The notes: generated by a model from the sequence alone, not told the origin. A DNA stretch of 61,105 nt from Candidatus Melainabacteria bacterium GWF2_37_15 (GCA_001784565.1 MFRL01000064.1:1-61105); one strand, 5' to 3'; shown: positions 4,249 through 61,105, counted from the first letter of the stretch. Program-made: numbers and translations.

Positions 4249-5247
4249 ATGTTACAATTTACTACACAATACATACCATTAAGACTACCTGTAAAGCAAA
4301 GCGTAAATTTTGGGATGGCTTTTGCCGATCCAATTAGTTGTTATGAGCCAATAAAGAGTAACTGTACTCTAACAGAGCCTATAATGGATTCAATGAAAGA
4401 TCAAAGAGTAGGTCACAATGTTATAGCTCCAGAGCCTATTGAAGCCAAAACATTTACTGCTGGAAACAATTTTCATGGGCAAAGTATAATGTCTGAAACT
4501 ATCACTATGGGCAATGATGCTTACATAAGTAATTTTATTTCCGCAGATACAGTTGATTTAAAAGATAACGCTACTATTATGGGCGAGGTTACAGTATCCA
4601 GAGGTTTAACAGCAGGACATAAATTCACCGCCGAATATGTTGAAGCTAATACAGTTAATTTAAAAGATGGTGCTGATATTGCTAATGGAGTTTTCGCAAC
4701 AGGATTGATTACAATAGATAATGGATTGCATGCTGGATATCTTGAAGCATATAAAGTACATTTAAAAGATAATGCCGTTATTGAGCGTGATGCTGCAGCA
4801 TGTAGAGAGTTTATAGCAGGTAATAATACTGAAATATACGGATCGGTTAAAGGACATACAGTTAAGTTAGGAGATAATGCTAATATTACGCGTAATGTTG
4901 AAGCTGATAAATGGGTAAAAATTGGGAATCATTTACAGGCAGATTCCATCATTTCTAGCGGTGACGTTTCTCTGGGAAGTATAGATAAATTAAACAAAAT
5001 TTGTTTTGATGAAAACAAAAATACAAGTCCGGATAGAAAATTAATACTTAACAGTGAAGATATAAAACCTGAGAAGAAGATAGAAGTACATTTAGGAGAT
5101 ATTTATTCTCTTGAGATACAAACTCCAACAGGAAATCCAGAGATTCTTAATAAATTTGAATTTATAGATAAATCTACAGGAAATCCAATAACCGACGACC
5201 AACGCAAAGCTATTAAGGTTACCAGGATACCTGAAGCTTCTTGTTAA
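4249..5247 (+). CDS. Hypothetical beta-helix repeat protein (bactofilin/polymer-forming-like)
   Basis: Repeats of V.LKD.A.I...V at ~33-aa period; AAGGAG RBS; N-terminal SVNFG motif; no signal peptide. Confidence 0.6.
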   Translation: MLQFTTQYIPLRLPVKQSVNFGMAFADPISCYEPIKSNCTLTEPIMDSMKDQRVGHNVIAPEPIEAKTFTAGNNFHGQSIMSETITMGNDAYISNFISADTVDLKDNATIMGEVTVSRGLTAGHKFTAEYVEANTVNLKDGADIANGVFATGLITIDNGLHAGYLEAYKVHLKDNAVIERDAAACREFIAGNNTEIYGSVKGHTVKLGDNANITRNVEADKWVKIGNHLQADSIISSGDVSLGSIDKLNKICFDENKNTSPDRKLILNSEDIKPEKKIEVHLGDIYSLEIQTPTGNPEILNKFEFIDKSTGNPITDDQRKAIKVTRIPEASC

Positions 5248-5277
5248 TAATTTCTTAAATATTAATATTTTTTTAAC

Positions 5278-5306
5278 AATTGACGGCGAAACACCCGTCA
5301 ATTTTT
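5278..5306 (+). terminator. Intrinsic terminator
   Basis: AATTGACGG-cgaaacac-CCGTCAATT hairpin followed by a T-run, downstream of 4249..5247. Confidence 0.7.
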
Positions 5307-5375
5307 AATATATAAATTTTTTTATATAAATATATTAAATTTATATAAAGACTAGATAATAGAGGAGTATAAAAT

Positions 5376-59020: not shown

Positions 59021-59165
59021 ATAATTCTCCTTTACTGAGATGATCTACCTATTATTTTTTTCCTTCCAATTGTTTAAATGCTGATGAAAAAAAAAGTTGA
59101 CACTTTACAAATAAATATTTAACAAAACTTAACAATAATGTTAGAATTCCAGTAGGAGATTAAAA

Positions 59166-60653
59166 ATGAGACCAAAATTTAAAATATTAATCTGCGCATC
59201 TGAAGTTGTACCGTTTGCAAAAACAGGCGGACTTGCTGATGTAGCAGGTAGCCTGCCAAAAGAACTCAAAAAACTGGGCCATGATGTTAGAGTTGTAATG
59301 CCTAGATATTGGGAAATTGACAAGGAAAAATACGGATTAAAACCTGTACCCGACCCTCTCGGTGTACCAATGGGCGTTATCGGGGAAATGTGGTGCGGTG
59401 TTCTTGAAGGGAAAATTCCGGGAACTGACGTGCCGGTTTATTTTATTGAACATGAACACTACTATGGCAGGAAAAACCTGTACAATGACGATAGCGGCCA
59501 GGGATTTATGGATAATGATAACAGGTTTGTGTTTTTATCACGCGCCTGCCTGCAATTATGCAAAAAAATCGGGTTTTATCCTGATGTAATTCATGCCAAC
59601 GACTGGCAAACAGCAGCAATACCTGTACTTCTAAATACTGCATATAGGCATGATCCTGTCGGTAACGCAGCCAGCGTCCTCACAATCCATAACATGCAAC
59701 ACCAGGGCAGTTTTTATGAAGGATTAATGGATGTACTCGGAATCGGTTGGAAGCATTATAATTTCCTGGAACTTGAATTCAACGATCAGGTTAATCTCTT
59801 AAAAGGTGGAATCCTTCATTCAACGCATATAACAACTGTGAGTGATGGATATGCAAAAGAAATCCAGAGCCATGAACATGGTTGGGGACTTGATGGAGTA
59901 GTAAGAGATAGAGCGGGCAACCTTTATGGCATACTAAACGGCTGTGACTACGATGAATGGAACCCCGAAACCGATAAACACATCATTAAAAACTATTCCG
60001 CAAGTGACCTCTCAGGCAAACTCGAATGCAAACGTGACCTGCAAAGAACTTTTGGCTTGCCTGTAAGAGATGATATACCGCTTTTTGGCATAGTAACACG
60101 GCTTGTAAGACAAAAAGGGGTGGATATACTTGCAGAAGCTTTATATAAGCTAATGGGTCTCGATGCTCAATTCGTACTCCTCGGCACCGGCGAAGTGTGG
60201 TCGCATTTTTATTTCGGCGGCGCACCAGGAATGTTCCCTGAAAAAGTTGGTGTTAACATTGGTTTTAGTAACGAATTGGCACACAAAATCGAGGCTGGTT
60301 CTGACTTTTTCCTCATGCCGTCAAGATTCGAGCCATGCGGTTTGAACCAGATGTACAGCCTGAGGTATGGTACTTTGCCAATTGTACGAGCAGTAGGCGG
60401 TTTAAATGACACTGTTGAGAACTTTAATGAGCAAACACTTGAAGGGAACGGTTTTAAATTCCATGACCTGACCCCTAATGCCTTGTTTGATACAGTCGGC
60501 TGGGCAACATACACTTATTATCATAATAAACCTGCAATGAAAAAGCTTATTCAGAACGCCATGAACAAGCGCTTCACATGGGAGGACGCAGCAAGGAAGT
60601 ACGATGATGTTTATTATCTTGCTGTACGCAACAGGCGCAACATTTATATTTAA
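59166..60653 (+). CDS. glgA: Glycogen synthase
   Basis: SEVVPFAKTGGLADV, HANDWQT, TIHN, QKG.D, MPSRFEPCGLNQ, GGL.DTV. Confidence 0.97.
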   Translation: MRPKFKILICASEVVPFAKTGGLADVAGSLPKELKKLGHDVRVVMPRYWEIDKEKYGLKPVPDPLGVPMGVIGEMWCGVLEGKIPGTDVPVYFIEHEHYYGRKNLYNDDSGQGFMDNDNRFVFLSRACLQLCKKIGFYPDVIHANDWQTAAIPVLLNTAYRHDPVGNAASVLTIHNMQHQGSFYEGLMDVLGIGWKHYNFLELEFNDQVNLLKGGILHSTHITTVSDGYAKEIQSHEHGWGLDGVVRDRAGNLYGILNGCDYDEWNPETDKHIIKNYSASDLSGKLECKRDLQRTFGLPVRDDIPLFGIVTRLVRQKGVDILAEALYKLMGLDAQFVLLGTGEVWSHFYFGGAPGMFPEKVGVNIGFSNELAHKIEAGSDFFLMPSRFEPCGLNQMYSLRYGTLPIVRAVGGLNDTVENFNEQTLEGNGFKFHDLTPNALFDTVGWATYTYYHNKPAMKKLIQNAMNKRFTWEDAARKYDDVYYLAVRNRRNIYI

Positions 60654-60724
60654 CTTATTGACTTCTTTCCATGGTTGTACTAAATCTAATAGATATAAGT
60701 TAGATATAGGGAATGAGGTAGGAT

Positions 60725-61105
60725 ATGGAACAAGTCAAACAAGTCAGCTTTGGAACAAACATAGTAATTCTTAAAAAAATTAGAAGGCTTCCTGGATATG
60801 CACAAGACGCCATGAAAATAACTGCATTGCAAAGAAGGGCTAAAGCTGATGGTATAGATTTAAAAATGAAGGCTGATTTATATAGTGGTGAAACAAAAGG
60901 CAAAAGAAGAGCATATATAGCTGCAGAAGTTATTCATCCTGAAGGAAAATTTAAAAAATTTGTATACCCTGGTAAGGATAATAGAATGGTAGAAAACCCA
61001 TCATTTATGGATAGGGTAGCACTGCTATTTCCTAAACTGCAGGAATTTCACAAACCTTCACTGGAAAACAATCCATACGGAACGAATAGAGTATTTGAAA
61101 GAATC
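60725..61105 (+). CDS. Hypothetical protein (5' part, runs off window; not in ORF track), paralogue of 56485..56973
   Basis: MEQVKQVSFGTNIVILKK...KPSLENNPYGTNRVFERI; GAGGT RBS; upstream DNA similar to that of 56485. Confidence 0.8.
   Translation, partial: MEQVKQVSFGTNIVILKKIRRLPGYAQDAMKITALQRRAKADGIDLKMKADLYSGETKGKRRAYIAAEVIHPEGKFKKFVYPGKDNRMVENPSFMDRVALLFPKLQEFHKPSLENNPYGTNRVFERI

Follow-up and report, generated by a model that had tools for sequence, protein, structure and literature searches.

A polar N-terminal tag under one promoter on otherwise unrelated proteins of a melainabacterium looks like an undescribed sorting or processing signal

Melainabacteria are the non-photosynthetic sisters of the cyanobacteria; their habitats are human and animal guts and groundwater, and they are largely uncultured. 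Here we describe a regulon of one of them, Candidatus Melainabacteria bacterium GWF2_37_15, and the N-terminal tag of its products, both recognised from a stretch of 61,105 bases (MFRL01000064.1:1-61105). This stretch is the complete contig C64, has a G+C content of about 36% and is called the window below. Its DNA occurs in four DNA sequencing runs of one study, all groundwater metagenomes, and no RNA run was listed for it. About 5% of the genes of this genome form one regulon, and their otherwise unrelated products open with the same tag, a polar leader that ends in a short motif around a single Phe. Judged from sequence comparisons, the tag looks like an undescribed protein-sorting or processing signal.

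Results

An N-terminal leader shared by unrelated proteins

The assembly (2.27 Mb, 102 contigs, about 92% complete) was annotated with a crude home-made gene caller, which scored codons by log-odds, removed overlaps greedily and rated start codons by a simple score. It returned 2352 genes covering 90% of the DNA, and all proteome statistics, including those that depend on start codons, rest on these calls. Motif counts were taken over 2342 proteins of this genome (labelled G000), and the leader motif was defined post hoc. Genes of the window are named by their lower coordinate.

The initial annotation of the window had pointed to strings of the type V-[SN]-F-[GK] near the start of several proteins without a Sec signal and had read them as a possible export signal. 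The strings VNFG, VSFK, VSFG (twice), PQFS and NVSFG all stand where it had placed them, and the type is enriched at N-termini. The pattern [VIP][SN]F[GK] was counted 37 times within residues 1-25, compared with 6.9 expected from its rate beyond residue 50 and with a mean of 10.6 ± 3.4 (maximum 20) in 200 shuffles of the N-termini. VSFG alone was found 6 times against 0.8 expected. A second string proposed in the annotation, xSIF, is present in the proteins named, but its enrichment is weak (56 in the first 50 residues; shuffled 33.1 ± 6.2, maximum 52); of these, 17401 (SSIFG) and perhaps 5376 (SIFK) fit the real motif, unlike 7581 and 27576.

The four-residue motif is the terminal part of a longer polar, acid-poor N-terminal leader. 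The head of the leader consists of Met, Ile/Leu and small polar residues (MINSIS..., MLNSVN..., MQINN...), the middle is a disordered, Asn/Ser/Gln/Pro-rich, acid-poor spacer of about 3 to 50 residues, and the tail is [P/V/I/L]-[S/A/N/T]-Phe-[Gly/Lys(/Arg)]-[Gly/Ala]. Head and tail occur together: the tail was found in 23 of 87 proteins with the head and in 123 of 2255 without it (Fisher, 8e-10). A position-specific scoring matrix (PSSM), a 12-residue leader profile that is anchored on the Phe and blind to Phe before residue 10, scored 50 N-termini at 10 or above and none of the shuffled, reversed or internal segments, the training data here being the tested data. In two-fold cross-validation by contig at a threshold of 8, 12 of 1181 and 16 of 1161 held-out N-termini were recovered, whereas the controls gave 2 and 0 (shuffled), 1 and 0 (internal residues 61-114) and 2 and 2 (residues 115-168). 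The Phe lies at residues 11-54 in the PSSM set, with a median of 21. Further regulon members have it at residues 5-10, with the motif starting as early as residue 3-6; examples read by eye among promoter-defined genes are MNISFG..., MKNVSFG... and MQVGFKG....

A set of 53 strong-leader genes was used for composition counts and for cross-validation of the promoter. The leaders contain 15% N, 12.7% S, 1.7% D and 2.1% E, and residues 2-12 are free of Asp and Glu in 42 of the 53, compared with 832 of 2342 proteins overall. Ile or Leu occupies position 2 in 50 of 107 cases. The Ser before the Phe has an AGY codon in 17 cases and a TCN codon in 16, and for the Gly that follows the Phe all four codons occur. 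The use of two Ser codon families and of all Gly codons indicates constraint at the protein level and rules out a DNA- or RNA-level motif or a translated 5' untranslated region. When the leader was removed from 68 candidates (PSSM above 7), the remainders fell into 61 BLAST clusters with seven pairs, which rules out a single paralogous family as the source of the tag.

A common promoter

The tagged genes are preceded by a 34-nt motif that reads roughly GGCAATTTTTTTTAT..(T)CAGG..TTTTATA. A position weight matrix (PWM) trained on tagged genes gave 278 matches of at least 12, compared with 58 in a block-shuffled genome. Strong matches end a median of 30 nt (quartiles 25-35) before the called start codon. 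A score of at least 17 was reached by 107 genes, about 5% of the genes of this genome, and these together with the strong-leader genes make up a set of 127 genes that is spread across 65 of the 102 contigs.

The association between the N-terminal motif and an upstream DNA motif, which the annotation had proposed to examine, survived cross-validation. When matrices were built from half of the 53 strong-leader genes, 13 of the 27 and 14 of the 26 leader genes held out had the motif (at least 12), compared with 82 and 97 of 2289 other genes (p about 1e-12). Conversely, a small residue followed by Phe and G, K, S or R occurs within residues 2-62 in 86 of the 107 promoter genes and in 688 of 2235 others. 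Two tagged genes for sigma-70 family proteins have near-top promoter scores (31.7 and 31.2), which makes autoregulation by one of the pair an obvious, if tentative, inference.

The claimed absence of a Sec signal also held for the whole set. An N-terminal hydrophobic stretch was seen in 1 of 127 tagged or regulon proteins and in 400 of 2215 others, the h-region of a Sec signal being sought in the first 30-45 residues or so, and 112 of the 127 have no strongly hydrophobic segment at all. The tag is not a type IV prepilin leader, since its order is Phe then Gly/Lys with no hydrophobic helix after it, and the prepilin-like proteins of this genome (for example 22709-23446) differ from it. Nor is it a twin-arginine translocation (Tat) signal; by eye, a twin-arginine motif was seen in one member only, C88_10517, downstream of the tag.

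Conservation in relatives

Members of one widespread tagged family of membrane proteins, represented here by C13_4591 and C56_3928, are 500-600 residues long and all-helical, several of the helices being hydrophobic; the species-representative genome collection yielded 252 loci. In an 18-sequence alignment that reaches down to 24% identity the leader Phe, F22, is conserved in at least 90% of the sequences, and of the 68 N-termini that could be used, from as many species of Candidatus Gastranaerophilales, 67 carry the motif. The typical start is M-[K/R]-[I/V]-N-N-x-N-S-N-x-N-F-[K/R]-G; the position after the Phe is K in 33, R in 22 and G in 6, and the next is G in 57. AlphaFold2 gave an all-helical model with a mean predicted local distance difference test score (pLDDT) of 71.4, in which residues 1-31 are below 50 and are predicted to be disordered. 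This fold had no match in the PDB at E<=0.001 (best template modelling score below 0.2), and its Atlas neighbours are all unnamed Melainabacteria clusters.

Leader-like N-termini were also seen in sampled genomes of families f3 and f9. Homologs of the beta-helix protein 4249 retain xSFGMAF, as KVSFGMAFAD at 76% identity and, after a longer spacer, as NISFGMAFSN at 33%. None was found among the 40 other genomes of the order, which suggests that the cargo evolves fast. The proposed order-wide occurrence of the tag rests mainly on the membrane family plus such individual examples.

A degenerate form of the promoter pattern is enriched in several genomes of the same family (for example 18 and 17 matches against 1 and 2 control matches) and is near background in many other genomes. 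At loci of relatives around promoter-like sites, 5 of 16 downstream open reading frames (ORFs) start with a leader. Counts of the promoter pattern showed no clear correlation with FlhA copy number across 41 genomes.

Proteins that carry the tag

Regulon members have a median size of 170 residues, compared with 243 genome-wide, and 12 of the 20 largest tagged proteins have Pfam matches. The tandem sigma-70 family proteins (Table 1) are nearest in NCBIfam to RpoD/RpoS types, not to FliA, at scores below the curated cut-offs, and a search for orthologs of the tagged sigma factor in 40 relatives gave only RpoD-like best matches at 36-42% identity. A tagged AAA ATPase is nearest to proteasome-activating, CDC48 and FtsH families, again below the curated cut-offs. 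Other tagged proteins are two radical-SAM enzymes (one with a SPASM domain), a CheR-like methyltransferase by Pfam, a protein with a weak kinase-like Pfam match, two alpha-amylase/isoamylase-like proteins of 1007 and 1351 residues, an M32 carboxypeptidase-like protein, and a trypsin-like protease in which the tag lies ahead of a twin-arginine motif. Members defined by the promoter also include a GT5 glycogen-synthase-like protein, alpha/beta-hydrolases, an amino-acid permease and an M16 peptidase, and the regulon contains three bactofilin-like beta-helix proteins.

The initial annotation had described the cargo as effector-like. The tagged proteins are diverse and signal-less, but export is hard to imagine for some of them, namely the two sigma-70 factors, the two radical-SAM enzymes, the AAA ATPase, the polytopic membrane family, one Tat precursor and one lipoprotein precursor.

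Flagellar-type machinery

Genes of a flagellar type III secretion system, for which the annotation had advised a search, are present as two core sets. A VirB4-type type IV secretion system was not found in the genome, which has three secretin genes. Set 1 comprises fliPQR-flhB-flhA on C72, flgBC-fliEFGHI on C40 and L/P-ring, hook and hook-associated genes on C58/C57. Set 2, a core with neither hook nor filament, has on C66 two rod-like genes, flgB, flgC, fliE/F/G/H-like genes, fliI and the second flhA; the second flhB lies on C27. A soluble protein of 468 residues joins an N-terminal part of no known type to the C-terminal domain of FlhA (FlhA-C).

FlhA is present in all 41 genomes of the order, and the FlhB of set 2 in 40 of the 41 at 59-84% identity. 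In all six loci examined, the set-2 flhB is followed by a sigma-like ORF of 185-222 residues, which in this genome is FliA-like. Family f3 (7 of 7 genomes) lacks the set-1 type and has kept the set-2 type and the soluble FlhA-C protein; flagellin was found in none of its four genomes at 99% completeness, in which all rod-motif ORFs are at most 304 residues long. Soo et al. 2014 (PMC4040986) state that most Gastranaerophilales hold a subset of flagellar genes that is insufficient for a flagellum. The filament-less flagellar core is the one putative non-Sec export machine visible throughout the lineage.

Some neighbourhoods of the rod genes were also noted. In a flagellin-less f3 relative the set-2 rod genes lie next to a FliA-type sigma gene and, a few genes further downstream, a small ORF starts with MQVNNISYKNYNQYFNGK (MQVNNIS...YFNGK; L317, G013:C7, 12198-12557, minus strand); in the present genome the tagged gene C66_9987 is likewise close to them.

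Features of the window

The features discussed here are collected in Table 1. The spacing of 23 nt from the promoter supports the start codon of 43006 as placed in the initial annotation, which is not the choice of our gene caller. The 49219 protein had no Pfam or NCBIfam match. The leader-like site in the linker of the M16 peptidase scores 14.6 with the PSSM, and the sole other internal site of at least 10 in the proteome scores 10.2; the linker site may be the fossil of a fusion between two tagged genes, or a real internal recognition site.

The annotation had counted 56485 and 60725 as two motif carriers. Both have VSFG, but as paralogs they amount to one count, and both lack the shared promoter; a homolog search with 56485 returned only itself, with none outside this genome. 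A common ACTTATTGACTTC element with a TTGACT-type -35 lies upstream of the two paralogs, at 56400-56484 and 60640-60724 (plus strand). The giant EF-hand protein 7581, the 'harpin-like' 5376 and 27576, which had been placed in the set, score as non-members. Prepilin-type and Flp-like N-termini and a pilin-like C-terminal fragment were seen at 22709-23446, 1756-2022 and 42231-42701, all on the minus strand.

The annotation had further noted recurrent C-termini, which are present as quoted. KPLNILA and KPLNIIA belong to two HExxH paralogs, so that their likeness is largely paralogy. Across the proteome LN[IL][IL] occurs within the last seven residues of 27 proteins against 11 expected, five of them regulon members, and could be a second signal in a subset. 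The ending [KR]SF.[LVI].[IVL] was found only in the adjacent ORFs 17065-17331 (KSFAVKV) and 17401-17574 (KRSFTLHI), both on the minus strand; anywhere in the 667,646 residues of the proteome this type of string occurs 12 times.

Table 1. Features of the window, and selected loci on other contigs of the genome (given with their contig). Numbers of residues are in aa; PWM, promoter score; PSSM, leader score
Feature	Location	Strand	Remarks
Promoter motif	4193..4226	+	PWM 24.0; ends 22-23 nt before ATG of 4249
Tagged protein, 332 aa	4249..5247	+	beta-helix; weak bactofilin/LbH-like Pfam matches
Leader of 4249 (aa 1-22), ending VNFG (aa 19-22)	4303-4314 (VNFG)	+	clear member
1818-residue protein	7581..13037	+	many EF-hand motifs (Pfam EF-hand_1, 1.5e-59); starts MGLPINF; no promoter or tag
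57-aa ORF	17401..17574	-	leader-like MINPV...PASFE...SSIFG; no regulon promoter
HExxH protein, 161 aa	18594..19079	-	leader-like MSINPV..., IAFGKG aa 52-57, PSSM 6.8; ends KPLNILA (LN[IL][IL] C-terminus); no promoter
HExxH paralog of 18594	27576..28163	+	ends KPLNIIA (LN[IL][IL] C-terminus); weak SprA-related Pfam match; non-member by score
M16 peptidase, 946 aa	39178..42018	-	weak promoter match 13.6 at 42062-42095
Internal leader-like site NVSFG (QNTKNVSFGNNSNN), M16 aa 495-499	40522-40536	-	Asn-rich linker between the two halves
Promoter motif	42949..42982	+	PWM 21.3; 23 nt to 43006
Tagged small protein, 73 aa	43006..43227	+	acidic C-terminus; VSFK aa 19-22; PSSM 15.3; clear member
Promoter motif	49161..49194	+	PWM 26.0; 24-25 nt before ATG of 49219
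Regulon member, 393 aa	49219..50400	+	subtilase-like by eye; head MISAV..., no F-[GK] tail; variant
162-aa protein	56485..56973	+	VSFG aa 4-7; regulon promoter score 6.1, i.e. none
Regulon member, 134 aa	58616..59020	-	variant tail PQFS aa 11-14, then hydrophobic segments
Promoter motif	59069..59102	-	PWM 17.6; 48-49 nt before ATG of 58616
Paralog of 56485	60725..61105	+	truncated by contig end; VSFG aa 7-10; no regulon promoter
Tandem tagged sigma-70 family genes	C69:16677-19391		Pfam regions 2, 3 and 4 in both, region 1.2 in one
Tagged 268-residue protein	C68:2967-3773		C-terminal AvrB_AvrC (plant-pathogen avirulence) Pfam domain, E 1.6e-15
Flagellar core sets and soluble FlhA-C protein	C66:7323-18339, C27:60320-62033, C72:7183-12173, C40:9377-15453, C59:17653-19059		
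Further LN[IL][IL] C-termini	C32:34524-35132, C36:1721-2299, C16:30378-30848, C21:4988-5461, C52:10167-11339		

Discussion

The lineage-specific system proposed in the initial annotation is upheld in part, as a promoter-tied N-terminal signal that sits on diverse signal-less proteins and is conserved in the order. As to its function, we tentatively favour, with a confidence that stays short of even, a sorting signal for export that would be read by a flagellar-type apparatus. One dedicated cytoplasmic receptor would read the tag, and its likeliest bearer would be the flagellar-type type III export apparatus, with the order-conserved set 2 (rod proteins, FliE/F/G/H/I, FlhA2, and FlhB2 with its FliA-like sigma gene) as the machine. 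Tagged proteins would then be exported or delivered without Sec, and promoter and tag would jointly define the substrate set, as promoter and N-terminus do for type III effector sets. A type III-like signal is favoured by the N-terminal position of the tag, its disorder and composition, its flagellin-like head, the near-absence of Sec signals, the logic of promoter plus N-terminus and the conserved apparatus. In a profile of the leader head the three main flagellins rank 128-142 of 2235, and the leaders follow the compositional rules of type III signals, namely a polar, Ser-rich and acid-poor start (about the first 12-25 residues) with an early aliphatic residue and no hydrophobic core.

Several observations weigh against export by this route. 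The RpoD/RpoS-like sigma factors, radical-SAM enzymes, AAA ATPase and CheR-like methyltransferase would be unlikely cargo, as would the multi-helix membrane family, and one Tat and one lipoprotein-type precursor carry the motif ahead of their own signal peptide. The rod proteins score low with the leader-head profile, and FlgG reaches a leader PSSM of only 7.2. A six-frame search of the genome with Flg_bb_rod (PF00460) at E<=1 gave 9 matches, all true rod, hook or hook-associated proteins and none a leader, so that homology of the leader to the rod N-terminal domain was rejected. Bryant et al. 2022 (PMC8983047) describe early substrates of Salmonella as bearing an N-terminal hydrophobic signal and a gate recognition motif that docks at FlhB_C, with 19-30 residues needed between the two signals. 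In the present leaders the Phe can be as near as residues 5-10 to the start, and a hydrophobic residue at +3/+4 after the Phe is found in 34 of 53 leaders and 59% of control Phe sites; the gate recognition pattern, which would place a hydrophobic residue at +4 from the Phe, is not enriched and was discarded. Prediction of a complex between the C-domain of FlhB2 and the leader (alignments A2 and A1) gave a score of 0.01, which speaks neither for nor against binding.

The promoter and the distribution of the tag add to these difficulties. The sigma-28 (FliA) consensus is TAAA-N15-GCCGATAA, which the regulon motif does not resemble, so the set is not a sigma-28 regulon; sites of the sigma-28 type were seen ahead of other genes, among them the type-2 rod operon and an MGL-start gene. 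In 400-kb samples from two other families, scored with a PSSM trained on the present genome, 4 of 408 and 3 of 395 N-termini were above 7, compared with 1 and 0 in shuffled and 2 and 1 in internal controls; about seven leader-like N-termini were read by eye in each sample. Across the class, FlhA was found in 171 and the tagged membrane family in 113 of 251 genomes. In favour of export, the membrane family occurs only in lineages that have FlhA, being absent (0 of 80) from two families in which FlhA was found in 1 of 80 genomes; against it, the membrane family is also absent (0 of 43) from four families with FlhA in 42 of 43. Such co-occurrence is weak evidence because the lineages compared are few and related.

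The sigma factors, the enzymes, the membrane proteins, the Tat and lipoprotein precursors, the short spacing, the lack of a gate recognition pattern and the lack of a rod match are also what a cytoplasmic reader would predict, be it a pro-sequence protease, a degradation adaptor or a docking hub. The tag might instead be a cytoplasmic pro-sequence or degron, where one protease or unfoldase cleaves near the Phe or degrades the protein, and the regulon, including its own sigma factors, is activated or cleared together. This is rather unlikely in our judgement and is ranked second, although, given the tagged sigma factors, radical-SAM enzymes and membrane proteins, it accounts for the data almost as well as export does. 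It is compatible with every type of cargo (cytoplasmic enzymes, sigma factors, membrane proteins with the N-terminus inside, and Tat and lipoprotein precursors), and the distance of the motif from the N-terminus can vary at will, as it could for the site of a protease or adaptor. By their high promoter scores the sigma genes may be autoregulated, which would call for a brake; the linker of the M16 peptidase holds the proteome's strongest internal leader-like site; and the regulon brings its own proteolytic candidates, namely a subtilase-like pair (promoter scores 34.7 and 26.0), the M16 peptidase and the AAA ATPase of proteasome-activating/FtsH type. However, none of these is a conserved reader: relatives of the subtilase-like 49219 protein occur in 11 of 41 genomes of the order and in 0 of 17 from families f3, f8 and f9, yet leaders were seen in f3 and f9, so such proteins were rejected as a universal leader peptidase. 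Processing of the Prp type, as for ribosomal protein L27, was dropped as well, since PF04327 had no match at E<=0.1 in this 92% complete genome. The near-absence of Sec signals would not be predicted by proteolysis, though an N-terminal tag may simply be incompatible with them. A regulon-wide pro-sequence would parallel the logic of pro-sigma-E and pro-sigma-K in Bacillus sporulation, but we know of no precedent for a degron or pro-sequence on some 100 proteins.

Quite improbable is a docking motif, a beta-strand with a buried Phe and a Gly/Lys turn that tethers proteins to a common scaffold, hub or chaperone at a pole, granule or envelope, or that acts co-translationally. A short motif on a disordered N-terminus with one invariant aromatic residue has this character, all cargo classes are compatible with it, and the glycogen and starch enzymes (the two amylase/isoamylase-like proteins and the GT5 synthase-like protein) could share a location with the three bactofilin-like beta-helix proteins. 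Still, no candidate hub was identified, nothing sets docking apart from the other readings, and the Ser codon usage excludes a signal at the RNA level. That the tag has no common function and reflects chance, paralogy, AT-rich low-complexity 5' ends or mis-called starts is hardly credible. The motif was defined post hoc on calls from a crude program, an AT-rich genome favours codons for Asn, Lys, Ile and Phe, and 56485/60725 and a few other pairs are indeed paralogs; against this stand the cross-validated enrichment, the 61 unrelated clusters, the two Ser codon families, the near-zero internal and reversed controls, a promoter fixed at 25-35 nt from the called starts, and retention of the motif in homologs at 24-40% identity. 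Export thus ranks before proteolysis, docking and no common function, in that order, and the remaining probability goes to something not yet thought of.

The tag shares features with several known systems. Like the rod and hook signals of Salmonella, as outlined in the account cited above, it has a disordered N-terminus, small non-polar residues after Met, a downstream Phe motif and no Sec core, and the matching machinery is present, here in duplicate. Unlike the FlgD motif given there, FLTLL, it has Gly/Lys and then Gly/Ala after the Phe with no hydrophobic residue at +4, and its cargo is some 100 non-axial proteins. In Campylobacter jejuni an N-terminal sequence directs non-flagellar proteins through the flagellar apparatus with no need for an injectisome, according to two reports (PMC2764114, PMC5223770). 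What sets the present case apart is a consensus motif, the size of the regulon (about 100 genes) and the persistence of the apparatus in lineages without flagellin. To our knowledge flagellar secretion in Campylobacter has few substrates and neither a shared sequence motif nor a dedicated promoter.

In the Hrp regulon of Pseudomonas syringae, a hrp-box promoter and compositional rules for the N-terminus define type III effectors, whose N-termini undergo 'terminal reassortment'. Here too, unrelated proteins are defined by a promoter and a Ser-rich, acid-poor N-terminus with an early aliphatic residue, and one has an AvrB_AvrC domain. The Hrp system, however, has no conserved motif and a known injectisome and host, whereas no injectisome-specific gene was identified in the present genome and the cargo includes sigma factors and membrane proteins. 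In Bacillus subtilis a removable N-terminal extension of sigma-E and sigma-K couples their activity to a morphogenetic checkpoint. Two sigma-70 family proteins carry an N-terminal extension here, namely the tag, but in Bacillus the pro-sequence is confined to the sigma factor, the sequences are dissimilar, and a processing protease was not found in the present genome. The Tat, PEP-CTERM/exosortase and LPXTG/sortase tags are likewise short, lineage-restricted terminal consensus strings on many unrelated proteins. Those strings contain or border on a hydrophobic segment, and their processing enzymes are known, whereas the present tag is N-terminal and polar throughout, goes with a single promoter and lacks a known reader.

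In the literature on flagella, secretion and N-termini of Melainabacteria and Gastranaerophilales, neither the tag nor its promoter was found described. A consensus N-terminal tag on about 5% of a proteome, with one promoter and conserved in the order, is new among protein-sorting and processing signals. The Sec, Tat, LPXTG and PEP-CTERM tags each opened a field and were mostly first seen as consensus strings, and the present tag is a candidate of such rank. It offers a handle on about 5% of the proteome that lacks annotation, with a single Phe open to mutation and leaders open to reporter fusion. If it were a regulon-wide pro-sequence or degron, it would be an unusual mode of global regulation. 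As an export signal, it would offer a reason for a flagellar core in non-motile, flagellin-less gut lineages. In the boldest form of that proposal, which we consider unlikely, tag and promoter would mark the substrates of a new flagellum-derived, filament-less type III delivery system that is conserved in all Gastranaerophilales, those of the human gut among them. Its recognition signal would be a true consensus, x-S-F-G/K-G, and its cargo in each genome some 100 fast-evolving proteins, from enzymes and membrane proteins to sigma factors, with another cell or compartment as their possible destination.

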